The position numbers were made by a program, and so were the translations under genes. Below the pieces are notes generated by a model, which did not search any database, was not told the origin of the DNA, and saw only the letters and a program-made list of their open reading frames with translations. Below are positions 47,009 to 60,771 of a stretch of 64,000 nt of DNA, one piece after another. This stretch comes from a phage: sequence record PZ229304.1. One strand, 5' to 3'. Within the stretch, counting starts at the first letter, position 1. Each line of letters opens with the position of its first letter.

Positions 47009-48202
47009 ATGGCAGCACCAAAATCATGGGAACAATATAAAGAAGAGTGTCAACCTATTGCGAATAATAAAGGGATTGAGATCCTAGGATATGTTGAACC
47101 GTTTATAGGTTGTGATACGAAAATGATTCTACGCTGTAGGCAGGAACATGAATGGAAGACTTGTAGTATTAGTAATTTCAAGCACGGTAACAGTTGTCCT
47201 ATCTGTTCTGGTAAGAAGCCGTTAACATGGGAAACAGAATTGCCGATCTTGGAAGAGATAGCACAGAAGAAGGGGTATCAGGTGTTAGGGTACGTTGGAG
47301 AATGGAAAGGGAATAAAACAAAACTTGATTTGTTGTGCCATTGTGGGAATAGATGGCAAAGTACAGCAATTCATCAATTTAAAGGCGGTCGAGGTTGTCC
47401 ACAATGTAGGGGGGAGAATACAAGGAAGGCACTAACAATGTCCGACGATCAACATATTGCAGATTTCTTTTCTACAGGGAAATTTAAGGAAGGCACTATC
47501 TTCACTAACACAGGAACACGGAGTAAAGGATGCAGGCATAGTATCTGGATGGTTGAATGTCCTGTTTGCTCTCATGATGAATATGTTCAAGCAGGTGTTT
47601 GTGATGGTAAATTTTACTCTGAAGGAAATAACCTTAAACGAGGGTGCATTCCGTGTCGTTGTGGAAACTATCGGTATACAGAAGACCAGATCACCTATAG
47701 GGTAAAAAAGGAAGTAGAAGGGCAAGGGTATGTCTGGGTAGGTTGGATCGGTAAACCGTCTAGAAGTCACGGTAAGTTTAAATATCTTTGTCTTGTGCAT
47801 GGGGAACAGACAGGGAGGGCTAATAACTTATTAAGCCTCGGTCAAGGTTGTCCACAGTGTGCTGGTCATAATCAACAGCAATTATATATTAATATTGTTA
47901 AAGATAATGATATTATAGTGGCTCTTAAGTTTGGTATAGCTAAAGATAGTGATAGGCGATTAAATAGTCAAAATAGTTGTAATATGTTTTTTATGGAGCG
48001 TATTTGTTTATATGATTTTAGCACAGTGAAACAATGTAAGGCTGCTGAAAGAGCTATAAAGAAAAAATTAAAAACTGGTATTTTAACGGAAAGAGAGTTG
48101 AAAGACGGTTATACAGAAACAGTAAGTGTTTCTGATTTGGAAAATCTTCAAGAAATTATTACACAACATGGTGGCAAATTAGTATATAATAAGGAGATGT
48201 AA
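47009..48202 (+). CDS. Zinc-ribbon repeat protein with C-terminal T5orf172/GIY-YIG-like region (tentative)
   Basis: 397 aa; four repeats each ending in a CxxC pair (CPICSG, CPQCRG, CIPCRCG, CPQCAG) with a conserved GY.VLGYV / TK(M/L) / EW pattern; C-terminus QLYINIVKDNDIIVALKFGIAKDSDRRL weakly resembles T5orf172-type domains. Confidence 0.35.
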   Translation: MAAPKSWEQYKEECQPIANNKGIEILGYVEPFIGCDTKMILRCRQEHEWKTCSISNFKHGNSCPICSGKKPLTWETELPILEEIAQKKGYQVLGYVGEWKGNKTKLDLLCHCGNRWQSTAIHQFKGGRGCPQCRGENTRKALTMSDDQHIADFFSTGKFKEGTIFTNTGTRSKGCRHSIWMVECPVCSHDEYVQAGVCDGKFYSEGNNLKRGCIPCRCGNYRYTEDQITYRVKKEVEGQGYVWVGWIGKPSRSHGKFKYLCLVHGEQTGRANNLLSLGQGCPQCAGHNQQQLYINIVKDNDIIVALKFGIAKDSDRRLNSQNSCNMFFMERICLYDFSTVKQCKAAERAIKKKLKTGILTERELKDGYTETVSVSDLENLQEIITQHGGKLVYNKEM

Positions 48203-48754
48203 ATGCGGATTACTGATAAATATGTGTTCTTCTTCTCGGCAAAAGATGAATTTAGCAACTGGTATCTATCATCTTTTATTGAACCTTTAGCTCCCAAGTA
48301 TAATAATTCTATTACAAGTTCTGTTGAATTTACTTGTGTGGAACAATATATGATGTGGAGAAAAGCATGTTTGTTTTATGATTACAACATTGCATCTTCT
48401 ATTTTAACCGGAGATCTAAGATATACAGGAGAAAAAGAACAGGCATATTATAAGCGACTAGGTAGATTAGTTAAAGATTACGATGAAGCTACTTGGACTT
48501 CTTTACGGGAGAAGATTGTCAAGCGTGGTTTGTATCTTAAATACACACAAAATGAAGATCTCAAAAATAAACTTATCGCTTACGCAGATAAGGAGTTCGT
48601 AGAGGCAAGCCCTTATGATTCTATTTATGGTATCAAAATGGGAATGTGGGATCGTGATGTGGAAAATAAGGACTGTTGGAAAGGACAAAATCTTTTAGGA
48701 AAATGGCATACAGACCTTGCTGTTTATCTAAAAGCACAATCTGATATTTCCTGA
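48203..48754 (+). CDS. NADAR (YbiA/DUF1768-like) domain protein
   Basis: 183 aa; N-terminal FFFS...FSNWY.S.F......F..VEQYMMW.KA.LF.D matches the YbiA/NADAR signature as recalled. Confidence 0.55.
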   Translation: MRITDKYVFFFSAKDEFSNWYLSSFIEPLAPKYNNSITSSVEFTCVEQYMMWRKACLFYDYNIASSILTGDLRYTGEKEQAYYKRLGRLVKDYDEATWTSLREKIVKRGLYLKYTQNEDLKNKLIAYADKEFVEASPYDSIYGIKMGMWDRDVENKDCWKGQNLLGKWHTDLAVYLKAQSDIS

Positions 48755-48968
48755 TATTTTGAAAATTTTTATTTTTATAAAAAGGGGTGTGGGTTTCATG
48801 TACGGAAATCCACCCTCTGAATAATATATCCAGAGTAAATATTATTCTGTACTCTGTTAATAAAGTATTTAATTTGTTTGTTGGACTATGGTATCTGATC
48901 TTTAAAAGGCATACTATCTCTTAACTACTACTTATAACAGAACAGTAAAATCATTTTTATAAAAAGGA

Positions 48969-49170
48969 CAAAATTATTTAAAGTTTTTACAGATTTTTGG
49001 GTACAAATTTTGAAAATGAAAAGTTCAAGTTTGGTCAAAATTATTTAAAGTTTTTGTATGTATTTCTATCCAGATTTTGAAAATGAAAACTTCAATTTTT
49101 TAAAAATTCCCCAGTTTATTTAAAGTTTTTTTGCCTTTTTCCGTAGAAAAATCAAAAATGAAAAGTTCAA
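48969..49170. repeat. Three direct repeats (about 65-75 bp period) each containing TTATTTAAAGTTTTT and TTGAAAATGAAAA(G/C)TTCAA
   Basis: Units begin near 48969, 49036 and 49110; the second motif is itself a partial palindrome (TTGAA...TTCAA); region is non-coding and AT-rich. Confidence 0.6.
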
Positions 49171-49195
49171 TTTCGTGTTTTTATAGGTGTGCGTA

Positions 49196-49303
49196 TGATA
49201 ATCATTCTCATTTGTAAATGAGAATCATTATCATTTAAGTATGTAAGTGATAATCATTCTCATTAAGAGAATGAGAATCATTAGCAAATGAGAATTTTTC
49301 TCA
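49196..49303. promoter_or_regulatory. Cluster of five Fur-box-like 15-mers (TGATAATCATTCTCA and variants)
   Basis: Sites at 49196-49210, 49219-49233, 49248-49262, 49272-49286, 49289-49303; best sites match the 7-1-7 Fur consensus TGATAATnATTATCA at 14/15. Confidence 0.5.
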
Positions 49304-49567
49304 TTTAGAGAATAACGCGCAGGGGCGGTGTTTGTCTCGCGCTCCCGTGTCCCCTCGCCATACAATAAGAATAGCATAACCAACAACAAAAGCAAGCGAT
49401 TATTTTTATCTTTACATTTCTTTACAAATTTATTTTAGACGAGCTACCGGCGATCAACCTTCCAACCAGTGCCCCCTGGTATGTTAGCCCCGCCTTTACG
49501 CCGTGGGGGTGGCGCTTCCTCTTCTGTATGTAAAACAGTATAAGCCCGATCCCTGGGCTTGTCAAGA

Positions 49568-49834
49568 TTATTTTTTGTTTTCTTGCCAGGATAGGACACC
49601 TAACCAAAAATACATGTCGCCCCGCGCCCCTGGTGGGATCTTGCTTTCCCCGCCGCCACTGCAAGCCCATAGATAACCATTAGCGAACGGATCAAAGTTT
49701 TCTATTTCTTCCACCTTATGATCGCCCAGGTTGAGAACGGTTTCGACCTTTAAGCCCGTTGCGCTTGCTACCTGGTGCACCGTGCCGCCTTGCCAGCCCA
49801 ATGAGTGCATAAGGTGTAAAGTAGTATTTGTCAT
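49568..49834 (-). CDS. Hypothetical protein in GC-rich island (low confidence)
   Basis: 88-aa ORF with weak RBS; surrounding 49310-50050 is visibly more GC-rich than the rest of the window. Confidence 0.25.
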   Translation of the reverse strand: MTNTTLHLMHSLGWQGGTVHQVASATGLKVETVLNLGDHKVEEIENFDPFANGYLWACSGGGESKIPPGARGDMYFWLGVLSWQENKK

Positions 49835-49945
49835 GGTATCGCCCTTTCTTTGATGTGCGCCCTGGTTGGCGCGGTAGAAAGATAATAGCCGTTTCCTTTA
49901 TAGATAGCAAGCAAAAAAAGAAATGAAAAAAGATTAAAAAAATGG

Positions 49946-49974
49946 TTGACGTTCCTCACCTGGTAGCGTAATAT
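49946..49974 (+). promoter_or_regulatory. Sigma70-like promoter (TTGACG-17-TAATAT)
   Basis: Near-consensus hexamers with 17-nt spacer. Confidence 0.4.
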
Positions 49975-50206
49975 TCATCTTGTCGAGGGGGGCAAGGCAC
50001 AACGACAATAAACAATAGGCGGGTGCAATGCATGACGGGCAAAGGTGAGGATCTCCACAATCCACCGTCACAATAACATTACTTATAAAAGGTTGATAAC
50101 GATGATCAAGAAAGAAAATAGCTTGACGGTTGGAACGATTAACGCTATCATTCTCGCCGTTCCATTTTGGATTGTAGTGGCGGTTGTTATTTTCTAAAAA
50201 ATATTC

Positions 50207-50265
50207 TTGACAACGTTTTTTAATCTGATAAGATGTATCACATAGGGCGGCAATAGTGCCGCTCA
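50207..50265 (+). promoter_or_regulatory. Early promoter cassette: TTGACA-16-TAAGAT, conserved CACATAGGGCGG and imperfect 5' hairpin
   Basis: Exact -35; conserved post--10 motif; hairpin GGCGGCA-ATAG-TGCCGC(T)C; upstream of gene 50287. Confidence 0.5.
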
Positions 50266-50286
50266 TAACAGAAGAGAGAAATAATC

Positions 50287-50559
50287 ATGGCATCATATAG
50301 CGCATCAATGATCGTAGCTGGCATCACTGGTAAACCTATGCGCGGTGGCGGATCTTTCGCTAACATCAATATTGATGGACGTTTATCCCTGGACGCAGCG
50401 ATCACCGTGGCACGGGAAACGTTTAAAAAAGAATGTAATTTCAATAAACAAGATTATCTCGGTTTCGCTATTGAAAAAACCGCGCGATTTGTGGATTATA
50501 AAAGCCCGAAAATGATCGACACTACACTAAAAGCGCAAGATGTAGCGTTTTTGCTTTAA
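50287..50559 (+). CDS. Hypothetical early protein
   Basis: 90-aa ORF following promoter cassette. Confidence 0.45.
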   Translation: MASYSASMIVAGITGKPMRGGGSFANINIDGRLSLDAAITVARETFKKECNFNKQDYLGFAIEKTARFVDYKSPKMIDTTLKAQDVAFLL

Positions 50560-50562
50560 GGC

Positions 50563-50623
50563 TTGACACTGAAAAATACTTTGTTAATATATACCACATA
50601 AGGCGGGGAAATGGTTTCCCGCC
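50563..50623 (+). promoter_or_regulatory. Early promoter cassette: TTGACA-16-TAATAT + CACATAAGGCGGGG + hairpin GGCGGGGAAA-TGG-TTTCCCGCC
   Basis: Consensus-like hexamers; 9-bp stem hairpin at 50603-50623. Confidence 0.6.
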
Positions 50624-50645
50624 AAATCAAAGAAAGGGTAATGCA

Positions 50646-51008
50646 ATGAGCAAGCAAATCAATACTATCATGTTTAATCTGGTATCTTTCCGCGATGACG
50701 TGAAAAACCTTTCGCGTGGTGCAGTGGATGCACGGATCGAAAGCTATCGCACACAGATCGCAACGTTACCGCTGAAACGTGATCAACATGCCGCTAATAT
50801 GATGCTTGATGCTATGATTAAAAAGATGATTCAATGTGATCTTACTCTGGCTTATGAATATGCTGGCGATCTCTTTGTAACGTATAACAAGCCCGTTCCA
50901 GGTATGAGCACCACGGAAGAATTGCATGCCTTAAATCTGCGACAAGATGCATGGGATAACATGCGCCGTGTTATGGTATGGGTAGAAAGCGGCAAAATTT
51001 ACGCGTAA
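50646..51008 (+). CDS. Hypothetical early protein
   Basis: 120-aa ORF. Confidence 0.45.
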   Translation: MSKQINTIMFNLVSFRDDVKNLSRGAVDARIESYRTQIATLPLKRDQHAANMMLDAMIKKMIQCDLTLAYEYAGDLFVTYNKPVPGMSTTEELHALNLRQDAWDNMRRVMVWVESGKIYA

Positions 51009-51012
51009 AGAT

Positions 51013-51065
51013 TGACATTACACGAAAACCTGATAAGCTATCTTAAAGCGGGAATAGTTCCCGCT
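51013..51065 (+). promoter_or_regulatory. Early promoter cassette (TTGACA, weak -10) + hairpin GCGGGAA-TAG-TTCCCGC
   Basis: Exact -35 at 51013-51018; hairpin 51048-51064. Confidence 0.4.
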
Positions 51066-51083
51066 TACATAGGATAAAACTTT

Positions 51084-51230
51084 ATGAAACAATATGTAAT
51101 GAGTATTCATACCAAAAACGGCGCTACTGTTACGACTCCGGCACGGTTTGCACTTGTAAACCGTTGCAAGAGACTAAAACGAGAGCTAAAAAATAACCGT
51201 GCAACCGGTTTTAAACGCTGGGGAGGATAA
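51084..51230 (+). CDS. Small basic hypothetical protein (48 aa)
   Basis: ATG downstream of promoter cassette; below ORF-track cutoff. Confidence 0.3.
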   Translation: MKQYVMSIHTKNGATVTTPARFALVNRCKRLKRELKNNRATGFKRWGG

Positions 51231-51232
51231 TC

Positions 51233-51493
51233 TTGTTTTTTCTAAAAGTTTTTGATAATGTGATCGCTTTTGAACATGCTACGACGTTCGACCTGGCGAG
51301 ATACGCTATCAGGTTTAAAGATAATGTTTATCCCCGTGCTGGCGGCGGTTACACTATTTTTAATCATCGTAACGCTCAATTAACGGATATAACTAATCCA
51401 GGCCCTGGAGTGTATCGCATAGGCTGGCTACCGTCAAAAGACGCGGCAAGCATGTTTAAGGTATGTAAACTACTAACAGAAGAGGCGAACTAA
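51233..51493 (+). CDS. Hypothetical early protein (TTG start)
   Basis: 86-aa ORF; TTG 5 nt after GGGAGGA. Confidence 0.4.
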   Translation: MFFLKVFDNVIAFEHATTFDLARYAIRFKDNVYPRAGGGYTIFNHRNAQLTDITNPGPGVYRIGWLPSKDAASMFKVCKLLTEEAN

Positions 51494-51494
51494 C

Positions 51495-52049
51495 ATGGGG
51501 CGTGAGTATGTGATCCAGTCCTGGGTAAAGCATGACGCTAATGATCCGCGCATAATACCAGATGACATGATCGATCACATGGTAGGGTATAGCGGGGAGC
51601 AGATAGGAAATCGAGCGGCAAAGAGCAACGGCAACACAAAGGCGCGATCCGTTCGCCCTGGTTGGCTGGCAAATGGTAACGCTGACATTGCAAGCGCCGC
51701 AGATCCAAGCGATGACGCTAAAAATAATCCCTTGTACAGCATTGATCCGGCTTTTAAGGTGTTGGAAGAGTATCCCGCTAAATTAGCCGCACTAGATAAG
51801 GCATACGAAGAAAAGCGCATGGCATGGACTGTATACAACACCGCTAAAATGGTGCTAGATGCAAAATTGATTAAAGCCCAGGAGAAGATCAATAAACTTG
51901 TTACCATAGCGCAAGAGGAAGACCAGGACGACCAGGAGGAAGAGGAAGAAATCATGCCTATCCTGGAAGAGGAAGAGATCCAGCCATACATGCCGACGGA
52001 AGAGGAAAAAAGACAAGCCCTAAAAAATTACGAAAATTGTATTGTGTAA
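51495..52049 (+). CDS. Hypothetical early protein with acidic C-terminal region
   Basis: 184 aa; EEDQDDQEEEEE stretch. Confidence 0.45.
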   Translation: MGREYVIQSWVKHDANDPRIIPDDMIDHMVGYSGEQIGNRAAKSNGNTKARSVRPGWLANGNADIASAADPSDDAKNNPLYSIDPAFKVLEEYPAKLAALDKAYEEKRMAWTVYNTAKMVLDAKLIKAQEKINKLVTIAQEEDQDDQEEEEEIMPILEEEEIQPYMPTEEEKRQALKNYENCIV

Positions 52050-52052
52050 GGC

Positions 52053-52109
52053 TTGACATATGCAAACAAGCCCCGTAATATGTACCACATAAAGCGGGGC
52101 AACGCCCCA
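52053..52109 (+). promoter_or_regulatory. Early promoter cassette: TTGACA-17-TAATAT + CACATAAAGCGGGG + short hairpin
   Basis: Consensus-like hexamers; GGGGC-AAC-GCCCC hairpin. Confidence 0.5.
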
Positions 52110-52130
52110 TAAGGTGAAATAAAAAATCAC

Positions 52131-52158
52131 TTGACACCTGAAATCAGTAAGCTATAAT
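52131..52158 (+). promoter_or_regulatory. Perfect-consensus sigma70 promoter (TTGACA-16-TATAAT), tandem to the cassette 75 bp upstream
   Basis: Both hexamers identical to consensus with 16-nt spacer; 37 nt upstream of ATG at 52196. Confidence 0.6.
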
Positions 52159-52195
52159 GCTTATATAGATTGAAACATTACTAAGGAATAAAAGC

Positions 52196-52375
52196 ATGGC
52201 TATTATTGCAAAGACTGAGATCGTAGGTTTAGATTCTATCATCCTGGCATATGAGGAAGCTATAGAAATGTATGTGGTTTCCTATGGTGATTATATCCGT
52301 GAATATAAATCTATTGATCTAGCTTTTGAATGTTATATTCGCCAGGTAAATAAAGCATACGATGATTATCGTTAA
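52196..52375 (+). CDS. Small hypothetical protein (59 aa)
   Basis: ATG after AAGGAATAAAAGC; just below ORF-track cutoff. Confidence 0.35.
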   Translation: MAIIAKTEIVGLDSIILAYEEAIEMYVVSYGDYIREYKSIDLAFECYIRQVNKAYDDYR

Positions 52376-52470
52376 AAGTTTTAGTCTTGTGCTATTGACA
52401 ACGAACGATAGTACAAGCATAATAACTTTTATCGGGAATACTCCTAACTAATCAAAAGAGATTAAAGACT

Positions 52471-52836
52471 ATGGCTAAAAATATCAATGTTTCTGCTTAT
52501 GCTACCCTGGCTAACACTGCTAAAATTGAACTATCCAGCATTGAAGCGGTACATATTAGCGCCCGTCGCTGGTTTCAAAAGTCTTATGGTAATACTTATT
52601 TCTCTTTGATGGTTGACGTTGAGATCGGCGGTAAACTGATTGAAGTCGTTAACGTTCCGTTTCAATATGGCTACGGGGATCATTTTGATACCGTTGCCCT
52701 AGAAGAGTTTAGCAAGGTTATCAACCTGGAAGGTAAAGACTTTTCAAATTATGCTTACCTTTCCCGCTTTTGCCGTGATAATGGGATCGCTGTATACAGT
52801 CATGCAAGCGATGTTAAACGTAAAAAAGATTTATAA
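52471..52836 (+). CDS. Hypothetical early protein
   Basis: 121-aa ORF with RBS. Confidence 0.45.
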   Translation: MAKNINVSAYATLANTAKIELSSIEAVHISARRWFQKSYGNTYFSLMVDVEIGGKLIEVVNVPFQYGYGDHFDTVALEEFSKVINLEGKDFSNYAYLSRFCRDNGIAVYSHASDVKRKKDL

Positions 52837-52842
52837 AAAGCA

Positions 52843-52901
52843 TTGACAGCACGAATAAAAAGCATATAATACTTATATCGAGAGCGGGAATAGTTCCCGC
52901 C
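52843..52901 (+). promoter_or_regulatory. Early promoter cassette: TTGACA-16-TATAAT + hairpin GCGGGAA-TAG-TTCCCGC
   Basis: Consensus hexamers; hairpin 52884-52900. Confidence 0.6.
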
Positions 52902-52924
52902 TCACTGAAAAAGAGATTAACATC

Positions 52925-53164
52925 ATGGCTAAATCTAAAATGTACAACGGTCACAAAAATAAAACTCATTGGAATGTAAGCCTTTGGATCAACAATGATG
53001 AAGGTTTTTATAATCTTGCACGTGAATTTATTGCAGCTAACACCAATAAGAATGACGCAGCGCGTGATATGATGCTATTTCTTGAAAGTATGGATCAAGA
53101 TAAAACGCCAGACGGTTACAAGTTCAGTAAAACTGCAATCCGCGCCGCGATGGTTGGAATGTAA
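52925..53164 (+). CDS. Hypothetical early protein
   Basis: 79-aa ORF. Confidence 0.45.
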   Translation: MAKSKMYNGHKNKTHWNVSLWINNDEGFYNLAREFIAANTNKNDAARDMMLFLESMDQDKTPDGYKFSKTAIRAAMVGM

Positions 53165-53259
53165 AGGAGACATAAAAATGAAACATCGTTCGACCTATCT
53201 CACAAAACGTTTTAGCTTAGATCATAAATTGGGCTATTACGGAAGAAATAGAAAATAAT

Positions 53260-53319
53260 TTGACAACGTTTTAAATTAGTGTAATATATATCACATAGGG
53301 CGGGAAATGGTTTCCCGCC
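53260..53319 (+). promoter_or_regulatory. Early promoter cassette: TTGACA-16-TAATAT + CACATAGGGCGGG + hairpin GGCGGGAAA-TGG-TTTCCCGCC
   Basis: Consensus-like hexamers; 9-bp stem at 53299-53319. Confidence 0.6.
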
Positions 53320-53341
53320 AAATCAAAGAAAGGTTATCATT

Positions 53342-53569
53342 ATGGCTATCGTTATTGTTCGCGTATCCGGTACGGTTGGAATCTCTCAGGTAGTAGCAGT
53401 TATCACAGAGAAGAAAGGAGATGATCTTCACTCCTCCTTGAATAGCTGGGCGGTCGCTAATTTTGGGCAATGGTCGAGCGTTGAGTACATCGAATCCTAC
53501 CAGGTGCCAACGATTAGCCTGACCGATCTGAATGTTGATCGCTTGTTGTGCCTGGATCAATTAAATTAA
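53342..53569 (+). CDS. Hypothetical early protein
   Basis: 75-aa ORF. Confidence 0.45.
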   Translation: MAIVIVRVSGTVGISQVVAVITEKKGDDLHSSLNSWAVANFGQWSSVEYIESYQVPTISLTDLNVDRLLCLDQLN

Positions 53570-53577
53570 AAATAATA

Positions 53578-53635
53578 TTGACAAGATAACTAAAATCAGT
53601 AAAATGTAATGCATAGGGCGGCACTATTGCCGCCC
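53578..53635 (+). promoter_or_regulatory. Early promoter cassette: TTGACA-16-TAAAAT + GCATAGGGCGG + hairpin GGGCGGCA-CTAT-TGCCGCCC
   Basis: Perfect 8-bp stem at 53616-53635. Confidence 0.55.
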
Positions 53636-53655
53636 TAGTGAGAGAGATTATCAAA

Positions 53656-53871
53656 ATGGCTAATATCCGCACACTGTTAAAAAATGCAAGTCAAGTTTTA
53701 TTTTCAGATGACGAATATTTTAATAAAGATATTACAGGCGTGAAAAATTTAAAAGACGTGAAGGATGTTATCGGTATCCGTGGATCTTTACGTAAAGGTG
53801 ACATATACGGTAACAAGGTGCAGTATAAACTGTCAAAAGATTATGATTTTACTTTGACAATTATTTCATAA
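53656..53871 (+). CDS. Hypothetical early protein
   Basis: Start set at MANIRTLL downstream of the cassette. Confidence 0.4.
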   Translation: MANIRTLLKNASQVLFSDDEYFNKDITGVKNLKDVKDVIGIRGSLRKGDIYGNKVQYKLSKDYDFTLTIIS

Positions 53872-53877
53872 AACTAC

Positions 53878-53938
53878 TTGCAAACCTGGTAAAATAAAGT
53901 AAACTATATTCATTAAGGCGGTGGAATAGCCAACCGCC
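53878..53938 (+). promoter_or_regulatory. Early promoter cassette variant: TTGCAA-16-TAAACT + imperfect hairpin GGCGGT...ACCGCC
   Basis: -35 variant; hairpin 53917-53938. Confidence 0.4.
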
Positions 53939-53962
53939 TAACAAAGAGAAGAGGAAAACATC

Positions 53963-54133
53963 ATGATCACTTTCGCTACCCGTGAAGCCGCTCGCAACGT
54001 TGCACGTAAAGTTAACGCCGCCAACCTGGGCGCTACGCTTAAAGCCCCGGTAAAAGATGAATCAGGAAAATGGATCTTCCCTGGTCTGCGTCACGCTGAT
54101 AAGCTGGGAACATTAACGTTAAAAAATAAATAA
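53963..54133 (+). CDS. Small hypothetical protein (56 aa)
   Basis: ATG after AGAGGAAAACATC; below ORF-track cutoff. Confidence 0.3.
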   Translation: MITFATREAARNVARKVNAANLGATLKAPVKDESGKWIFPGLRHADKLGTLTLKNK

Positions 54134-54140
54134 TATTCGC

Positions 54141-54199
54141 TTGACAGTAGCATCATTTATAAGTAAAGTAACAACAACGGCGGGAAATGGTTTCCCGCC
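54141..54199 (+). promoter_or_regulatory. Early promoter cassette: TTGACA-17-TAAAGT + hairpin GGCGGGAAA-TGG-TTTCCCGCC
   Basis: Hairpin 54179-54199 identical to that at 53299-53319. Confidence 0.55.
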
Positions 54200-54219
54200 A
54201 TCAATAAAGAGATAAGATT

Positions 54220-54579
54220 ATGAAATCAGCAAAAGCAATTAAAACTTACATTTTGTCGGCTATTTCTTTTGATGGTACTACAACCGAAAAAGAAAAAATC
54301 ACCGAACTGATGCGCCGTTTTAATTCTGAATACTGGTATCCCGATAATCAAAAACGTTACAATTATAACGTGATCAAGGCGATAGCCTCATGGTTACAAG
54401 GTTTACCGTCAGAAATCAATATTGCTTTTGATTATAACGAGATCGATCACTTGTTAATTGAATGGAAGTACATAAAAGAAACAAGCAAAGAAACAACCGT
54501 TACCCGTGAGCGGGAAAATTATTGGTTATATATTGCAAGCATGATCGTAATCCTGGCAAAACAGCATAACGTGGCGTAA
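54220..54579 (+). CDS. Hypothetical early protein
   Basis: 119-aa ORF. Confidence 0.45.
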   Translation: MKSAKAIKTYILSAISFDGTTTEKEKITELMRRFNSEYWYPDNQKRYNYNVIKAIASWLQGLPSEINIAFDYNEIDHLLIEWKYIKETSKETTVTRERENYWLYIASMIVILAKQHNVA

Positions 54580-54594
54580 TTAAGAGGAAGAAAC

Positions 54595-54732
54595 ATGAAC
54601 GCATCACAGCAGATCGAAAAATTCAACCGCAGCAAGGCGCGTAAAGATTGGAACGAAGAGATCACCAAAAAAGGTGACAAGCGGAACAAAACAAAGAGAG
54701 ATCGCAGCACAAAAAGATACTGGAACGAATAA
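54595..54732 (+). CDS. Small basic hypothetical protein (45 aa)
   Basis: ATG after AAGAGGAAG; Lys/Arg-rich. Confidence 0.3.
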   Translation: MNASQQIEKFNRSKARKDWNEEITKKGDKRNKTKRDRSTKRYWNE

Positions 54733-54735
54733 CAA

Positions 54736-54762
54736 AAAAGGGCGCAATAAGCGCCCTTTTAG
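54736..54762 (+). terminator. Rho-independent terminator (AAGGGCGC-AATAA-GCGCCCTT + TT)
   Basis: 8-bp GC stem directly after the stop at 54730-54732. Confidence 0.5.
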
Positions 54763-54850
54763 CTTATATAGAGGCTTGTTACCCATAGGCAATGGTAACG
54801 CCAGGGCAAGCCTATAAATCAACGTTAGACGGCTTTACAGGAGCTTTAAA

Positions 54851-55033
54851 ATGAGATTAGAAGAAATAAGCAAGGCACTAGCCCAGGGGCAAAGGTTAAA
54901 CGCCCGTTATCGTGATCAATATGGTTTCATAACTAGCGGCGTGATCCTGGGGATTGAAGACAATAAGATTTTTATTGACACGTTGAAAAACGTTGTATAT
55001 AGTGACAATATAATCTCAATAAAACATATATGA
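54851..55033 (+). CDS. Hypothetical early protein
   Basis: 60-aa ORF. Confidence 0.4.
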   Translation: MRLEEISKALAQGQRLNARYRDQYGFITSGVILGIEDNKIFIDTLKNVVYSDNIISIKHI

Positions 55034-55041
55034 GGCAAGAA

Positions 55042-55443
55042 ATGAAAAAATTATTGATCGCTGGTTTACTCTCTTTTGGCATGGTTGGAACATCTAGCGC
55101 GGCGATATCCTCCACAGTAGCAGAATTAAGCGCCGTTGATGCAATGGAAAACGTCATGCTTATTAACAATGCGATCCCCGATGAAATCATGGAGGATTCA
55201 CACATGATCGCTTATGGTGCTGTTACACAACTAACGGCAAAAATAGATAAATCTATTGTTAATGGCTTAAATGAAGATGTACCATGTGAAATTATTACAA
55301 GTGTGCTGACTACTCAAAATTTTACGCCGTGGTTAAAAAGTATTCAAAAAGTACACAGTACAGCCGCAGATCGTAGCAATGAAAAACTAGTGTCAGCACT
55401 TGCAACGTATACCCTGGCAAAATGCACCGAGATAAAAGATTGA
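55042..55443 (+). CDS. Secreted hypothetical protein
   Basis: Start set at MKKLLIAGLLSFGMVGTSSAA (signal-peptide-like). Confidence 0.45.
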   Translation: MKKLLIAGLLSFGMVGTSSAAISSTVAELSAVDAMENVMLINNAIPDEIMEDSHMIAYGAVTQLTAKIDKSIVNGLNEDVPCEIITSVLTTQNFTPWLKSIQKVHSTAADRSNEKLVSALATYTLAKCTEIKD

Positions 55444-55466
55444 CAACATAGAAAGCACGTTATAAG
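55440..55466 (+). promoter_or_regulatory. Sigma70-like promoter (TTGACA-15-TATAAG), no 5' hairpin
   Basis: Exact -35; upstream of gene 55491. Confidence 0.35.
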
Positions 55467-55490
55467 ATACACACAACAAAGGAGAACTAC

Positions 55491-55787
55491 ATGAACGGCA
55501 TAGCTAAAACGTTTTTTCTTTTTTCTGGTGTAAATGATCCATCAATAAAAGTCGATAGTGTAAAAGAAAACAATACTATCACAGCTAAATTGTATCAAGA
55601 TGAAACAAATAACGTGCTAATCATTAATCTTAAAGAAATAACAAAAGGTTATTATGCTATTGCTTACCATGCGATTTATCATGCTGGTACTAGTGAGGAA
55701 GTGCAAACAAGCAACAACGAAAGCGCGGCGCTACCTGGTGATCTGGTGCTGGGCGTTATCAGTTTAATTGTCAATGATTTTTTTTAA
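55491..55787 (+). CDS. Hypothetical early protein
   Basis: 98-aa ORF with AAGGAG RBS. Confidence 0.45.
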   Translation: MNGIAKTFFLFSGVNDPSIKVDSVKENNTITAKLYQDETNNVLIINLKEITKGYYAIAYHAIYHAGTSEEVQTSNNESAALPGDLVLGVISLIVNDFF

Positions 55788-56052
55788 GGAGTAAAACCAT
55801 GCCCTATTTACATTTATTTTTCGGTATCTTATTGACGGGATCTTTTTTCTTCTGTATGCTTGTTTCTATTGTAAACCACGTTTTAAGACATTAAGGAAAC
55901 AGCATGAAAATTATTCCCGTACAATATAGCGTAATAAATCCAGCATACGAGGAAGGAAGGAAAACAAGCATGGCTTTATGTTGTATTACTACTATAGCCA
56001 TGTTGTTATACATTGTGTTTTAATAGGTTTTATAGTTGTACGCTTTAAAGGC

Positions 56053-56081
56053 TTGACAATTTTTTGTTATGCTTTAAACTA
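56053..56081 (+). promoter_or_regulatory. Sigma70-like promoter (TTGACA, weak -10)
   Basis: Exact -35 at 56053-56058. Confidence 0.35.
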
Positions 56082-56123
56082 TATCTTGAAAACGGCAAAG
56101 GCCGCAAACAAAAGGGTAAAATT

Positions 56124-56447
56124 ATGAAATCTGTGATCGGTGTTTATTTGGATAACTCTGATTTTTTCTATCATCGCGCTCGTTTCCTTGATGCGATTGA
56201 AATGATAGAATCAGGCTTTAAAGAGTATCGCCTTGCACATGATGACCTGGAAGCATTACAGGGCAATAGTGTTTTTACATTGCAAGCGAAAGCACTATGT
56301 AAAAGCCGGATCGACATTGCGAGCAAAAAGATAGAACGCGGCATGTCCTGGTTGCGCACCGCAGAAATCAACATGGGGCAATGGCACGGCGAAAACTTAG
56401 AAAATAAACATACTTTTGTCAATGTAGAAAATATTGAAGATTATTGA
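56124..56447 (+). CDS. Hypothetical early protein
   Basis: Start set at MKSVIGVY. Confidence 0.4.
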   Translation: MKSVIGVYLDNSDFFYHRARFLDAIEMIESGFKEYRLAHDDLEALQGNSVFTLQAKALCKSRIDIASKKIERGMSWLRTAEINMGQWHGENLENKHTFVNVENIEDY

Positions 56448-56510
56448 TTGACAGCACACCTGATAAGTAGTATATTGTATCTCATAGAGCGGGGAAATGG
56501 TTTCCCCGCC
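56448..56510 (+). promoter_or_regulatory. Early promoter cassette: TTGACA-17-TATATT + CTCATAGAGCGGGG + hairpin GCGGGGAAA-TGG-TTTCCCCGC
   Basis: 9-bp stem at 56489-56509. Confidence 0.55.
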
Positions 56511-56529
56511 TTAAAAGAAGAGATAAGCT

Positions 56530-56814
56530 ATGAAGATCACAAAAGCACTTTCCAACTATGCAGCACGTCGCGGCTTATGTTTAACCGTTGAAAACCTGGG
56601 GAAAGAAGATTTTTTGTGCTTTTGGGAGCTTGAGAATGATAATGAGTGGATCTTCTCTTATTCTATCTGCGAAGATCAAAACGGTTGTTTATTAACCTGG
56701 CGCGGTAATATCTATCTACCGGAAGAAATCAAAGAAGAATTGCCAGGCACGATCATGACTGAGAAACAGCTTAAGGAAGTGATCAATTTTGTAGGGCAAA
56801 ACATTAAAAAATAA
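56530..56814 (+). CDS. Hypothetical early protein
   Basis: 94-aa ORF. Confidence 0.45.
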   Translation: MKITKALSNYAARRGLCLTVENLGKEDFLCFWELENDNEWIFSYSICEDQNGCLLTWRGNIYLPEEIKEELPGTIMTEKQLKEVINFVGQNIKK

Positions 56815-56815
56815 T

Positions 56816-56875
56816 TTGACACCAGGCAAACAACGTAGTAAAGTTTATCACATAGGGCGGGAAATGGTTTCCCGC
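56816..56875 (+). promoter_or_regulatory. Early promoter cassette: TTGACA-17-TAAAGT + CACATAGGGCGGG + hairpin GCGGGAAA-TGG-TTTCCCGC
   Basis: Hairpin 56857-56875. Confidence 0.55.
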
Positions 56876-56897
56876 TCACAACAAAAGAGAACAAATC

Positions 56898-57068
56898 ATG
56901 ATCCCGACTATGTTTTACGTATCGCGCAAAGGTCACAATATTTTTTGGTCTGAAGATTTAAATGAAGCCATGACGTTTGCCCGTGATCGTGTTGCTATCG
57001 GTGGCGTTAACATTACTGTAACCGATGAAAACGGCATTGAATACTATAACGGCGACGATGAAGAGTAA
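56898..57068 (+). CDS. Small hypothetical protein (56 aa)
   Basis: ATG downstream of cassette; below ORF-track cutoff. Confidence 0.3.
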   Translation: MIPTMFYVSRKGHNIFWSEDLNEAMTFARDRVAIGGVNITVTDENGIEYYNGDDEE

Positions 57069-57115
57069 TTAATGAGGCGGGGGAGTATTCCCCGCCGTCA
57101 ATAAAGAGGTAAATC

Positions 57116-57385
57116 ATGAAAATATCATTTGACGTTGCAATCAAGGCCATCGAATCCGGTTACACCCTGGTAAAAGATGATAAGGCTAAAATAGTGCATC
57201 ATGTTAACAAGGAAACAGGCGAAAGCATGATCACATATAAAGCCGCCTACTTTCTCCAATCAGTAGCAGATCCGCGCGTACAGCGCCAGGTCACGGCGGC
57301 TATTGCTAAAAAATTATGTGCTTTACAGGGCACAAGTTTTAACGAGATCCCGCCGTGTTTTGACTGGTCGAGCTTGAAAAAATAG
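57116..57385 (+). CDS. Hypothetical early protein
   Basis: 89-aa ORF preceded by hairpin GGCGGGGGA-GTA-TTCCCCGCC (57077-57097) and AAGAGG RBS. Confidence 0.45.
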   Translation: MKISFDVAIKAIESGYTLVKDDKAKIVHHVNKETGESMITYKAAYFLQSVADPRVQRQVTAAIAKKLCALQGTSFNEIPPCFDWSSLKK

Positions 57386-57386
57386 T

Positions 57387-57448
57387 TTGACAATATGCGG
57401 TTATCTGGTAAAGTGTACCACGTAGGGCGGGGCAATAAGGCAACGCCC
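57387..57448 (+). promoter_or_regulatory. Early promoter cassette: TTGACA-16-TAAAGT + CACGTAGGGCGGGG + imperfect hairpin
   Basis: Conserved post--10 motif; GC-rich inverted repeat 57425-57448. Confidence 0.45.
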
Positions 57449-57466
57449 ACTAATGAGGGTAAAATC

Positions 57467-57571
57467 ATGTTAGAGAAAATTTTCACGGTTGTAGTAGTGG
57501 GCCTGGCGTTATCGGTTGGATTGGTTGCAACTATGGCTAACATGATCCTATCTTCCCACGGTATTGGATAA
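57467..57571 (+). CDS. Small membrane peptide (34 aa)
   Basis: ATG after GAGGGTAAAATC; hydrophobic (VVVGLALSVGLVATMANMIL). Confidence 0.25.
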   Translation: MLEKIFTVVVVGLALSVGLVATMANMILSSHGIG

Positions 57572-57581
57572 GGTGAATCAA

Positions 57582-57815
57582 ATGATCACGAATAAGACAG
57601 GTAAAACAGAATTTTTACGCGGCTTGCAAATAGGTAAACCTGAAATCTGGCATTGCACTAAAACACCACGTGACGAAATGAAAGATTTCACCGCTACTTT
57701 ACAACGTGTTAAAATATCTATCACACAGAAAAAAGCCTTGTTAGTAGTAGAAAACGAGATCCCGCAAACCAGATCGGGAATGATTTACATTTTACCCGTA
57801 ACGGTCACGGCGTAG
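57582..57815 (+). CDS. Hypothetical early protein
   Basis: Start set at MITNKTG (AAGGTG RBS) within ORF 57564..57815. Confidence 0.4.
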   Translation: MITNKTGKTEFLRGLQIGKPEIWHCTKTPRDEMKDFTATLQRVKISITQKKALLVVENEIPQTRSGMIYILPVTVTA

Positions 57816-57943
57816 GCTTTTGGGATCGCCCTGAAATATACACTACTAACACCGCCAACCGCCTAACAAATGCGGCTAAATTAATGCCATCGGTGCATGC
57901 TTACATTGGTGAAGATAATTTGATTTATATTGAATAAAAAGTA

Positions 57944-58003
57944 TTGACACCGATCCCCCAATATGTTACTATTTACCACGTAGGCGGGAAATGGTTTCCC
58001 GCC
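57944..58003 (+). promoter_or_regulatory. Early promoter cassette: TTGACA-17-TACTAT + CACGTAGGCGGG + hairpin GGCGGGAAA-TGG-TTTCCCGCC
   Basis: Hairpin 57983-58003. Confidence 0.55.
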
Positions 58004-58026
58004 AGGTAATCAAAAAGGTAAATACT

Positions 58027-58416
58027 ATGCGCAACCTGGTTTCTGTTTCTAACGTTGAAAAATTCCAATCTTTACAGGGTATCGTTAACAACGTAGCGCC
58101 TTTTTTAGTCAATGGCTTGATTGCAAAGATGAAGAATAAACATCATGCCGCATGGTCTGCTTACTGCTTTGACAATGATGAAAAAGCGGCTGAAATGATG
58201 TTAAATATGCTGTTAGACAGTGTAGAATCATCTTTACCGGAAAACATCGCAGAAGAGATCACCTATCGTTATAATATGGCGATCACTTACCAGGAGGTTG
58301 CGCAATTTAATATGATGGACGATGACGAACAACAGGATCAGGAAATATTCTGGGAGTATGCGGATCGTCAATCGGCTTTTGATGAAAAGTTAGCGATGTA
58401 TTATAACGAATATTAA
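58027..58416 (+). CDS. Hypothetical early protein (acidic C-terminus)
   Basis: Start set at MRNLVS; the ORF-track ATG at 57991 lies inside the hairpin loop. Confidence 0.45.
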   Translation: MRNLVSVSNVEKFQSLQGIVNNVAPFLVNGLIAKMKNKHHAAWSAYCFDNDEKAAEMMLNMLLDSVESSLPENIAEEITYRYNMAITYQEVAQFNMMDDDEQQDQEIFWEYADRQSAFDEKLAMYYNEY

Positions 58417-58429
58417 TACACGGTAAAAG

Positions 58430-58458
58430 AAAGGGGCGCACTAAGCGCCCTTTTTTGT
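58430..58458 (+). terminator. Rho-independent terminator (GGGCGC-ACTAA-GCGCCC + TTTTTT)
   Basis: GC stem followed by six T residues, 14 nt after stop. Confidence 0.6.
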
Positions 58459-58801
58459 ATTCTTTTTTCACAATGGAAGCGACACGTAAAGAATAGGCGT
58501 AAAGGTGGCGTAAAACCATCTAAAACCGACTGTAACCGCTTAAACAAGGTAGGAATGATTAATCACCTTACCAGGATGAAAAAGCTGTTATAAAGCTATA
58601 TAGGGCGTTTAAAGCACATAGGAAATAATTTGCTTTTTATCTTGCCTTTTATTCTGCTTTTGATTATTATTATGGAACGGGCGGCACCTGGGAACAGGGG
58701 AAGATAATCACCGGACGACCCCGCTATATATTGATAGCTAACATCTATCAAACAACAAAACATCAAAGGAATAAACTATCAAATCTTTACAATCTCATCT
58801 A

Positions 58802-58830
58802 TTGACCGGTAAATCATAGCAGTTTAATAT
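58802..58830 (+). promoter_or_regulatory. Sigma70-like promoter (TTGACC-17-TAATAT)
   Basis: Near-consensus hexamers upstream of gene 58879. Confidence 0.4.
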
Positions 58831-58878
58831 TGTTTTTAGAGGGTAGAACATACCCAAAACGAAAACAGGAAAAAGAAA

Positions 58879-59115
58879 ATGAAAGAAGTCATGATCCTCA
58901 AAAAATCACCTATTTTACGTGGTGGCTTTATCGCTTACTCTGATGATCTGTTAATTGCAACGGTTGCAAAAATACTAAAATCAGAAGAGGATAGTAAAAA
59001 CGGCGTTTATCGTATCTGTTTCACCCGTGGGAAATTGCAAGGCAAGATCGCCTATGCTTTTGATTTACAAGATGTAAATGATAAAATCTGCGCTGTTATT
59101 GATTATGCAAAATAA
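58879..59115 (+). CDS. Hypothetical early protein
   Basis: 78-aa ORF. Confidence 0.45.
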   Translation: MKEVMILKKSPILRGGFIAYSDDLLIATVAKILKSEEDSKNGVYRICFTRGKLQGKIAYAFDLQDVNDKICAVIDYAK

Positions 59116-59127
59116 TTAACTTTCTTA

Positions 59128-59156
59128 TTGACACCGGATCACGCTTACATTATTAT
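59128..59156 (+). promoter_or_regulatory. Sigma70-like promoter (TTGACA-17-TATTAT) followed by conserved CACGTAGGGC
   Basis: Consensus-like hexamers; conserved post--10 element but no GGCGGG hairpin. Confidence 0.5.
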
Positions 59157-59202
59157 TTATCACGTAGGGCAAATCATTTTAAACGGTAAACGAGGAATCA
59201 CC

Positions 59203-59586
59203 ATGAGCAATATCATCAACCTGGCGGCTACTGTAAACGGTAAAGATTTTAACGGCGCTGTAGATCGTGATCCTATGTGGTGCTTATCCGTGTTTAAAGG
59301 CGATCTGGTTGAAGTTAGAACAACCGAAGGTTATAGCGACGATTATAAATGCGAGATCCATTTACACAACTGGTACACGGGTAAAACTTATGCGCTGAAT
59401 CATGCGTTTATCGGCAAGGTTGAATATAGAGAAATGATCGACGAAGAAACGGGGCAAGATTTTAGCGATTATGTTTATATCCGTTCCGAGACATTAGCAG
59501 AACGTTTGATCGAGAAAATGAAAGCAAAAAATAAAATTAATTTAGCTCATTGGATTGATATAACAAACGATCCAGCTTATAAGTAA
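59203..59586 (+). CDS. Hypothetical early protein
   Basis: Start set at MSNIINL (GAGGA RBS) within ORF 59128..59586. Confidence 0.45.
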   Translation: MSNIINLAATVNGKDFNGAVDRDPMWCLSVFKGDLVEVRTTEGYSDDYKCEIHLHNWYTGKTYALNHAFIGKVEYREMIDEETGQDFSDYVYIRSETLAERLIEKMKAKNKINLAHWIDITNDPAYK

Positions 59587-59599
59587 ATGACACTTCACA

Positions 59600-59629
59600 C
59601 CAGGGCGCACAAAGCGCCCTTTCTTTTTA
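59600..59629 (+). terminator. Rho-independent terminator (AGGGCGC-ACAAA-GCGCCCT + TTCTTTTT)
   Basis: 7-bp GC stem and T-rich tail 14 nt after stop; closes the early-gene block. Confidence 0.6.
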
Positions 59630-59835
59630 CCTAAATAAAGATGATAGCTTTTACCTATCAAAAACGTTCACCGAAAAAAGTGAATAGATCGCGGTATCGA
59701 GCTAATCAAGGAGCAGATGAACAACCATACCATGAAGATCATAAGGCGCTTACAGCGTGTTTTAGACCGCTTATTTTTAATTTCTTCATGCAACTATTTG
59801 GCAAAAACAGCCTTTTTCTTGTCTTTCCTCTTAAA

Positions 59836-59908
59836 TGATAATCATTCTTATTTATAGCTGATTATTTATGCAATAAACTGCATAATGCAATAATGATAAT
59901 CATTCTTA
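59836..59908. promoter_or_regulatory. Two Fur-box-like sites (TGATAATCATTCTTA) 58 bp apart
   Basis: 59836-59850 and 59894-59908; second site extends to ATAATGATAATCATTCTTA (16/19 to classic Fur box GATAATGATAATCATTATC). Confidence 0.45.
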
Positions 59909-60295
59909 ACTTATGACCATCTAACCTATAAAATAATAAGTTATCTAACTAAATTAAAACTAATTATCTTACTTTTATTTATAACTTACTGTTACTATCT
60001 CATTGATAACCTTATATTAAACAACAATAACTAATATAAATCATTACTAAGCTAAATATAATCTATCTAACCTTTAAAACTATAACTATAATCTATTGAA
60101 TTATTGCACAAAGTAACTATTAAATCGTTAGTAACATTACTAAATAATTAATATCCTATCTATTTATGATCTAATCTTTACATTCCTATCTATTACCTAA
60201 ATAATCATTTCATATAGTAATCATTTCATACAATAACTATAACAAGAAATATAATTCGCAAGCGTATCATTAGCAGCCTATGCCGGACACATAGG

Positions 60296-60442
60296 CGGCT
60301 AATAATAACGCAACTACACACCCCACATAATAACTATCACCGATAGTTATTATTTGTGCTTATGTAGCTTGCAACAACTGCAAGCGCAACAATATACATG
60401 GTATATTGTATCCCTTACATTGTTGCGGTGCGTTATTATTAG
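60296..60442. repeat. Nested palindromic region: long-range inverted repeat enclosing three hairpins
   Basis: Outer arms GCTAATAATAACGCAAC (60298-60314) / GTTGCG..GCGTTATTATTAGC (60422-60442); inner perfect 12-bp palindrome ATAATAACTATC-ACC-GATAGTTATTAT (60327-60353); GCTTGCA-ACAAC-TGCAAGC (60367-60385); CAATATAC-ATGG-GTATATTG (60388-60407). Confidence 0.55.
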
Positions 60443-60771
60443 CTAATGTTTAGAACATTGGCTATAATATAAGCTAAATCATAAGCTATGCAATAATAAA
60501 CATGGTGAATAATGACATTGATGATCATAATGCGCCACCTTCCAGGGGGCGCTATGTGAACACAAAGAAATCTTTCTTGTCAAGAAAATATTACTACTAT
60601 TGCGCAAAATTATTTATATCTGAATAGATGATTTTTTATGCTATTGCCCCCTTGATTATTACTATTTGTTGCCCTAACTATTGTCATTTGTTGAGCCTAC
60701 TTTCTTAAAAGCGCAATAAATCAGAATTATCTTGATTTTTAGTCGGTTTTATAGTACAGAAAGTATGCAAA

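Follow-up and report, generated by a model that had tools for sequence, protein, structure and literature searches.

Fur-type boxes at the genome ends and at the inner edge of the early-gene block of a phi92-like phage, and their possible role as boundary elements

Fur boxes, the binding sites of the bacterial iron regulator Fur, are textbook operators. A different role is known from Escherichia coli ftnA, where an upstream cluster of Fur sites relieves silencing by H-NS. In native Fur clusters, the sites overlap at 3- or 6-bp offsets (PMC2189734), and on phage DNA, Fur boxes are known in front of cargo genes of temperate phages, namely, sitABCD in lambdoid coliphages and stx1 (PMC6969025). 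In phage T5, the DRE repeats were listed among the candidates for the signal that stops first-step transfer (FST) of the genome by Davison, who calculated the FST shear point at position 9618 of AY587007, in repeat DRE2, favored the DnaA boxes and did not mention Fur (10.1101/866236); papers from 2023 and 2026 still call the stop mechanism undetermined. Here, we describe Fur-type boxes in a 64,000-nucleotide stretch of phage DNA from sequence record PZ229304.1 (hereafter, the window), in which an earlier note, made from the sequence alone, had pointed to a cluster of 5 Fur-box-like operators at positions 49196–49303. Whereas Fur operators and the Fur boxes of prophage cargo genes are known, we found no description of promoter-less, end-linked arrays in virulent phages: a literature search, outside of which lay most subscription journals, returned no Fur-box arrays from virulent phages, genome ends or the T5 stop signal.

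By sequence identity, the window is from a phi92-like phage of the genus Justusliebigvirus (Stephanstirmvirinae), with the section 48700–49900 being 98–99% identical to Justusliebigvirus coliphages such as vB_Eco_J-01, EmilieFrey and alia. In the annotations of these relatives, the array falls in an unannotated gap between a NADAR/YbiA-like gene and a run of small hypothetical genes. Five records titled “Campylobacter phage” (e.g., C3, MG065656) are also ~97% identical to the window phage over the array region and are probably mislabelled or contaminated.

Fur-type boxes in 2 non-coding regions

The array consists of 5 palindromic boxes. In the following lines, mismatches of the 15-mer cores are counted against TGATAATNATTATCA (of 14 positions), and the 19-mers are scored against AATGAKAATNATTMTCATT, which has 18 informative positions.

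49194–49212: Fur-type box 1, TATGATAATCATTCTCATT (17/18); core 49196–49210, TGATAATCATTCTCA, 1 mismatch
49217–49235: Fur-type box 2, AATGAGAATCATTATCATT (18/18); core 49219–49233, TGAGAATCATTATCA, 1 mismatch
49246–49264: Fur-type box 3, AGTGATAATCATTCTCATT (17/18); core 49248–49262, TGATAATCATTCTCA, identical to the core of box 1, 1 mismatch
49270–49288: Fur-type box 4, AATGAGAATCATTAGCAAA (15/18); core 49272–49286, TGAGAATCATTAGCA, 2 mismatches
49287–49305: Fur-type box 5, AATGAGAATTTTTCTCATT (17/18); core 49289–49303, TGAGAATTTTTCTCA, 3 mismatches, all central, with perfect outer arms

All 5 of the 15-mers reported by the earlier note were recovered where it had placed them, 3 being 1 mismatch away from TGATAATNATTATCA, 1 being 2 and 1 being 3 mismatches away. 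The general form it had given for them holds for boxes 1 to 3, with boxes 4 and 5 departing from it slightly, and the sites it had called overlapping or adjacent are adjacent but do not overlap: the boxes are discrete, with centre-to-centre distances of 23, 29, 24 and 17 bp. The 19-mer of box 2 recurs identically in the T5 array (centre 9665) and box 5 is present identically in phage phiWec181, while box 4 together with the GAGAAT upstream of it matches GATAATGATAATCATTATC at 16 of 19 positions (position 49267). A 54-aa minus-strand open reading frame (49231–49395) crosses the boxes; the spacing between boxes differs among relatives by non-multiples of 3, and we therefore treat this frame as non-coding.

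The region is AT-rich and internally repetitive, and the earlier note had named AT-rich composition as a possible trivial source of the motif. However, the counts far exceed those expected under all 3 null models, and composition therefore does not explain the boxes. Across the window, a mismatch scan found 5 sites with at most 1 mismatch, compared to 0.04 expected under a first-order Markov null (maximum of 1 in 200 simulations), and all 5 sit in 2.8 kb of non-coding DNA, for which a non-coding null predicts 0.006. Within 108 bp, there are 4 sites with at most 2 mismatches (null maximum, 2), and a null derived from the local AT-rich 370 bp predicts 0.15 sites with at most 3 mismatches, versus 5 observed. 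Furthermore, the motif is retained across subfamilies though its flanks diverge, and an origin by chance in AT-rich, repeat-rich non-coding DNA is exceedingly improbable.

The identification of the palindromes as Fur-type sequences is strong, because it draws on the match to the consensus in its 7-1-7, 19-bp and 9-1-9 forms, the recovery of native sites and published identical motifs. The phage boxes are at least as close to the E. coli 7-1-7 and 19-bp consensus sequences as the native ent-fep operators examined: in 3 Fur-controlled intergenic regions of E. coli K-12 ent-fep, the best native site, that of entC (TGATAATCATTATTA), has 1 mismatch and the others have 3. The phage-derived pattern TGAKAATNATTMTCA, scanned over the 24-kb ent-fep cluster, yielded 7 matches against 1.75 expected, 4 of which lie in these 3 known Fur-controlled intergenic regions. 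Two published Fur motifs are exact phage palindromes: AATGAgAATcATTctCATT, the Fur consensus derived for Xanthomonas (PMC1790865), and TGAGAATGATTCTCA, located upstream of an Enterococcus operon that loss of fur de-represses 12- to 18-fold (PMC6056675). Variation among the phage boxes is found at positions 6, 10 and 14 of the 19-mer, which are those given as weakly conserved in the published consensus.

We infer from the sequence that Fur binds the array, and the protein in question is likely to be the Fur of the host, since the motif equals the host consensus and is common to unrelated phages whose hosts have a conserved Fur. No Fur homologue is encoded in the window, and none was found in the records of Stephanstirmvirinae, T5-like phages, Vequintavirinae and Alcyoneusvirus; a search for Fur across the phage collection returned only records resembling host fragments and unrelated phages.

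Four further boxes, which the earlier note had missed, are located in a second non-coding region of 1.6 kb (59.8–61.4 kb; box centres 59843, 59901, 60779 and 60974), which also includes the genome ends as mapped from relatives.

59834–59852: Fur-type box AATGATAATCATTCTTATT at the start of the second non-coding region (17/18)
59892–59910: Fur-type box AATGATAATCATTCTTAAC (15/18)
60697–61038: direct terminal repeat (physical genome ends), placed by homology from the ends of the BME3 record
60770–60788: perfect 15-mer TGATAATCATTATCA (0 mismatches), within the terminal repeat; 250–264 from the genome end in BME3
60965–60983: Fur-type box AATGATAATTATTCTCATT, within the terminal repeat (18/18); 55–69 from the end in BME3

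Direct terminal repeats of 342 bp have been determined with PhageTerm for the relative BME3 (PMC12210895), and a Klebsiella relative has a terminal repeat of 317 bp (PMC11663894). In the record of Schickermooser (Phapecoctavirus), the same 329 bp are found at the beginning and at the end, with boundaries as in the BME3-based mapping, and the repeat is thereby mapped in 2 genera at 329–342 bp; the 19-mer at 60965–60983 is found identically in the Schickermooser repeat. Thus, of the 9 boxes in the window, the 2 within the 342-bp repeat would recur at each end of the virion DNA, at 55 and 250 bp from it, whereas 2 others lie ~1.2 kb and the 5-box array ~11.8 kb from the end (11,735–11,842 bp when measured from the outer edge of the terminal repeat, or ~8% of the ~147-kb genome). 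The rest of the window contains isolated weak matches only. The same confinement is seen in the complete 147-kb genome of BME3, where sites with at most 2 mismatches are found at 55, 250, 1161 and 1219, in a cluster at 11896–11986 and in the right copy of the repeat, the remaining matches being 2 isolated 2-mismatch sites at chance level, at 3566 (early block) and 89174 (terminase gene).

Several other features were observed in or near these regions. Close to its right end (146.9–147.4 kb), the BME3 record has an extra duplication of ~840 bp with several N bases, the junction of which corresponds to window ~61113 to ~60272; this is either an assembly artefact or a hint that the genome ends have a more complex structure than the 342-bp repeat. 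Just inside the terminal repeat, the stretch 59900–60560 is extremely AT-rich with many short repeats (ctatcta, taacta) and is followed by long palindromes, e.g., cacataataactatcaccgatagttattatttgtg (~60324–60358) and gcttgcaacaactgcaagc (~60368–60386); it is possibly a packaging or replication signal. Elsewhere in the window, among minus-strand genes, a Fur-like 15-mer (TGATAATCTTTATCC) and a perfect DnaA box (TGTGGATAA) are found at 36857–36886, separated by 6 bp, a pairing that recalls T5 but may be due to chance; in the part of the BME3 genome that matches this neighborhood, there is no 15-mer within 2 mismatches.

The presence of 2 boxes within the terminal repeat, where terminase must act, raises the question of whether the sites are read by a phage protein, such as a terminase small subunit, a replication initiator or an early repressor, with the likeness to Fur sites being coincidence or mimicry and the boxes serving as packaging or replication signals. 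The AT-rich, iteron-like repeats beside the 5-box array, with a promoter firing towards them, would also fit such a reading, as they resemble transcription-primed phage origins. However, the same 19-mer occurs in T5-like siphoviruses, in Stephanstirmvirinae and Vequintavirinae myoviruses and in jumbo phages, and no T5 FST protein was detected in the window; none of the informative positions of the motif departs from the host Fur consensus; no cluster of DnaA boxes is present; and the 5-box array is 11.8 kb away from the ends. The minimum of the cumulative GC skew also lies elsewhere, at ~44 kb, although it follows gene orientation and is uninformative as an origin marker for the array. A phage regulator with Fur-like specificity, which the earlier note had considered, is therefore unlikely, given the occurrence of the motif in unrelated phage groups, the lack of a phage Fur homologue and the lack of a shared T5 FST protein. 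The boxes within the terminal repeat may be read by a phage protein as a packaging or origin signal, but such a signal would account for neither the array at 11.8 kb nor the sharing of the motif across phage families.

The early-gene block and the conserved surroundings of the array

The features on either side of the array are as follows.

48203–48754: NADAR/YbiA-like gene (Pfam NADAR), bordering the gap that holds the 5-box array
48953–49173, plus strand: 3 AT-rich direct repeats of ~67–75 bp, each with TTATTTAAAGTTTTT and a partial palindrome, TGAAAATGAAAAGTTCAA
49305–49531 (ends approximate), minus strand: candidate small non-coding RNA of ~225 nt, directed towards the array, GC-rich and structured
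49313–49363, minus strand: GC-rich hairpin abutting box 5, putative 3′ end/terminator of the candidate RNA
49537–49565, minus strand: promoter-like TTGACA-17-TATACT (11/12) for the candidate RNA, the spacer of which doubles as the terminator hairpin of the 88-aa gene
49568–49834, minus strand: 88-aa gene, the only minus-strand gene here (phrog_19316, E = 7e-59; no Pfam match)
49946–59620, plus strand: early-gene block of small genes of unknown function (~10 kb)

Sigma-70 promoters of the TTGACA type (at least 10/12 matches) number at least 21 between 49946 and ~59200, all on the plus strand and approximately one per small gene. Because of these promoters, the 2 box-bearing regions appear to bracket the block that would be transcribed first, by unmodified host RNA polymerase. 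Searches of the 88-aa gene and the early genes against Pfam and PHROGs returned only matches of unknown function. The 88-aa gene is preceded by a promoter-like site and is kept in Schickermooser, with apparently synonymous changes. On the other side of the array, the gene 2 upstream of it (47009–48202) contains CapR-homology repeats and a T5orf172 domain (Pfam) and is annotated in relatives as endonuclease or hypothetical. A tRNA scan of the window found none.

Were the boxes classical iron-responsive operators, Fur would repress a promoter in or beside the array, for example one reading into the 70-bp repeats or one for an antisense transcript of the 88-aa gene and the small RNA, and phage expression would follow the iron status of the host. 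Several strong Fur boxes together are a hallmark of tightly repressed promoters, and the array does contain weak promoter-like matches (TTCTCA-18-TATCAT, both strands, 9/12). Yet no conserved −35/−10 pair lies over any of the 9 boxes, the 9/12 matches being by-products of the palindromes; the second non-coding region has 12 promoter-like sites versus 12.2 in shuffled sequences, that is, no excess; and none of the strong early promoters carries a Fur box. As the earlier note had observed, no plus-strand gene follows for ~1 kb: the next ones start at about 50.05–50.29 kb, and the minus-strand 88-aa gene and candidate RNA lie in between. Thus, the operator reading fails for want of a promoter and a downstream gene, and we consider it unlikely. 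What stands of the Fur-box-like operators proposed in the earlier note is the Fur-box type itself, which is not a product of composition; the strongly iron-regulated promoter does not, as there is no convincing sigma-70 promoter over the array on either strand and the 3- and 6-bp overlaps of native clusters are absent.

The segment 49305–49531 is probably a small RNA gene. Over 6 phages from 2 subfamilies, its alignment has a mean column identity of 81%, with compensatory changes in 10 of 67 predicted pairs, and its 5′ domain is nearly invariant across Stephanstirmvirinae and 1 Vequintavirinae phage. The hairpin at 49313–49363 is nearly identical across genera and is paired in the RNAalifold consensus (columns 234–284). 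The promoter hexamers are kept in phi1_175008 (TTGACA/TAAACT) and KaOmega (TTGACG/CATAAT), and the hairpin in the spacer covaries. Rfam searches, which covered the whole window at the gathering threshold and 49150–49650 at E<10, gave sub-threshold chance hits only. Within the candidate gene, at 49402–49421, lies a tandem motif, CTTTACA-N3-TCTTTACAAA, which also precedes strong sigma-70 promoters in the unrelated phage Muenster (~1038–1060, 2306–2325 and 2540–2558) and is a second short element common to both phage groups.

The order of AT-rich repeats, 3 to 5 boxes, and hairpin with RNA is kept in Justusliebigvirus, in Phapecoctavirus (Schickermooser, phiWec181 and ZCKP1), in the unclassified Klebsiella phage phi1_175008 and in KaOmega (Certrevirus, Vequintavirinae), and is recognizable in Aeromonas phage 2L372D. 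Among these relatives, the sequences of boxes and spacers drift, but the consensus, the position and the spacer length hold, with 29 bp being the dominant distance (29, 29 and 29 in Schickermooser; 23, 29 and 29 in phi1_175008; 38, 29 and 29 in KaOmega). Of the 24 distances in all arrays, 16 equal 5 modulo 6 (17, 23, 29 or 35 bp), with a binomial p of 7e-8 that is inflated by shared ancestry; for a less redundant subset, p is 4e-5, with shared ancestry still inflating it. Four sites at 29 bp would span 116 bp, or ~11 helical turns, placing successive dimers approximately a quarter-turn apart. Phage arall (945–975) has a natural deletion of 52 bp between boxes 1 and 3, which are identical (window 49196–49262); it leaves 3 boxes and implies that the array is variable in size and prone to recombination.

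The AT-rich repeats at 48953–49173 flank the array on the side opposite to the early genes. Their core, ATTTAAAGTTT, recurs in Schickermooser, phiWec181 and phi1_175008, whereas KaOmega (640–820) and Aeromonas phage 2L372D (9820–10020) have repeated GGTCTCGATCG-type motifs upstream of their arrays instead, so that the flanking repeat family appears to be exchangeable while the boxes stay. An element within the repeats of the window, AAATGAAAA, resembles a degenerate half Fur box.

Counterparts in unrelated phages and a possible boundary function

A sensitive search with the array matched T5 and many T5-like phages within the feature annotated as “injection stop signal.” The repeats of the T5 stop signal (DRE/DRC, palindromes palE–palJ) are a box array of the AAATGAGAATCATT type, with 75.7% identity over ~90 bp. 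Along the T5 sequence (AY543070), a terminator (9275–9296) is followed by DnaA boxes (9437–9518), Fur-type boxes centred at 9561, 9596, 9619, 9665 and 9700, the major nick at 9748/9749 (7.9%), DRD repeats from 9752 and the end of the left terminal repeat at 10219. The shear point of Davison, converted to this record (offset of ~73 bp), falls at ~9691, inside the box array, a position that is approximate, being derived from “7.9%.” T5 also has a perfect TGATAATCATTATCA at 233–247 bp from its left end, within the dmp coding sequence, paralleling the perfect box at 250–264 in BME3. In Muenster, a Klebsiella jumbo phage, boxes lie 799, 825, 854, 894, 1085, 1312 and 2434 bp from the end of a 20-kb terminal repeat, the last 3 being ~50–60 bp downstream of strong promoters, where roadblock repression, in keeping with an operator function, is possible. 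More broadly, a synthetic 2-box query matched 1172 phage records, mostly of Escherichia, Salmonella, Klebsiella and Vibrio phages, with T5-like genomes matching in up to 8 places each.

Because bracketing of the first-expressed, host-transcribed segment is common to the window phage, its relatives and T5, we favor, with moderate confidence, the reading that the arrays are boundary elements of this segment, bound by host Fur, rather than ordinary iron-regulated operators. The 9 boxes would bracket the ~10-kb block transcribed first by unmodified host RNA polymerase, and, during DNA entry, the abundant Fe2+-Fur of the host would load onto the regularly spaced (mostly 29 bp) sites. With dimers on all faces of the helix, a stable nucleoprotein plug may then form just past the terminator of the strongly promoted minus-strand small RNA, where the early segment has its inner edge, and delimit the early domain. 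What the bound array would do is speculative. Our first preference is a barrier to transcription and to silencing proteins spreading from the adjacent AT-rich repeats; our second, a pause or anchor point in genome delivery or expression, by analogy with the FST boundary of T5; and our third, the bridging of the end-proximal and inner arrays, by which the early segment would be looped. A bolder version, in which phi92-like and rV5-like myoviruses deliver or express their genomes in 2 steps like T5 and in which, both in these phages and in T5, the stop or boundary signal is read by host Fe2+-Fur on the box arrays, is in our view quite unlikely.

Several points weigh against a boundary function. 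A cytoplasmic protein on DNA that has already entered is not obviously able to stop further entry, and an intrinsic terminator already precedes the array. The spacing of the phage boxes is outside the 3-/6-bp register of native Fur clusters (PMC2189734). The terminal repeat of phi92-like phages is short (329–342 bp) compared to ~10 kb in T5; neither a cluster or pairs of DnaA boxes nor the DRD repeats of T5 are present in the 2 non-coding regions; and tblastn searches with all T5 FST proteins (dmp, A1, A2 and others), run against the 64-kb window only, gave nothing below E = 0.01. For these reasons, the analogy with T5 is positional only. In Muenster, moreover, the 20-kb terminal repeat lacks an array at its inner boundary, and because of this different placement, a single function may not fit all phages.

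Titration of Fur, which the earlier note had mentioned, is another function that such arrays could serve: replicating genomes would act as a sponge, de-repressing iron uptake by the host and feeding iron enzymes such as ribonucleotide reductases. The phage carries 9 strong sites per unit-length genome, the 2 in the terminal repeat being doubled per virion DNA, and it encodes ribonucleotide reductases of classes I and III. However, Fur is abundant, with thousands of molecules per cell, and a sponge does not need the fixed position, spacing and neighbors that are conserved here. With the sites confined to 2 positions, and with T5 having the same arrays yet degrading host DNA within minutes (10.64898/2026.04.02.716235), the case for titration is weak, and we deem it very unlikely.

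That the arrays recur in large enterobacterial phages of at least 4 unrelated groups implies an as yet unexplained use of a host factor. In T5, the array lies where first-step transfer ends, and the only recent proposal for this site invokes the neighboring DnaA boxes; if the T5 repeats are Fur boxes, Fur becomes a testable host factor at the injection stop signal. Were 2-step delivery with Fur reading the signal to hold true, a factor would be named for the T5 stop signal, which has been without explanation for more than 50 years, and phage genome entry would be iron-sensitive. Phi92-like and rV5-like phages find use in therapy cocktails, and recognition of their boxes as Fur sites predicts that infection may depend on the iron status of the host, which differs between gut, urine and blood.

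Comparison with known Fur-site systems and T5

Compared to E. coli Fur operators (19-bp GATAATGATAATCATTATC; 7-1-7 TGATAATnATTATCA; entC, fepA-fes and iucA), the phage sites are identical at every informative position, and the G variant GAGAAT is shared with GATAATGAGAATCATTATT, which we take to be the Fur site of iucA (aerobactin). They differ in being discrete 19-mers 17–29 bp apart, promoter-less and, on average, stronger than the native sites examined. The Fur boxes of temperate-phage cargo genes are likewise host Fur sites on phage DNA, but these are single operators on the promoter of a prophage cargo gene, whereas here promoter-less arrays occupy the genome ends and the early boundary of a virulent phage. 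At ftnA, several Fur sites located far from the promoter act as a barrier and not as a repressor, providing a precedent for a boundary role near AT-rich DNA; that cluster is chromosomal, however. T5 has, in addition to its boxes, paired DnaA boxes (IRD′/IRC′), 9 DRD repeats, a site-specific nick, a 10-kb terminal repeat and the A1 and A2 proteins, by which transfer is restarted, and its boxes are spaced at 23, 35 and 46 bp, as opposed to the dominant 29 bp of phi92-like phages. The likeness to T5 lies in the placement of the array: in both cases, it is found in a large untranslated, repeat-rich region ~8% from the genome end, beyond the genes transcribed by host polymerase and a terminator.

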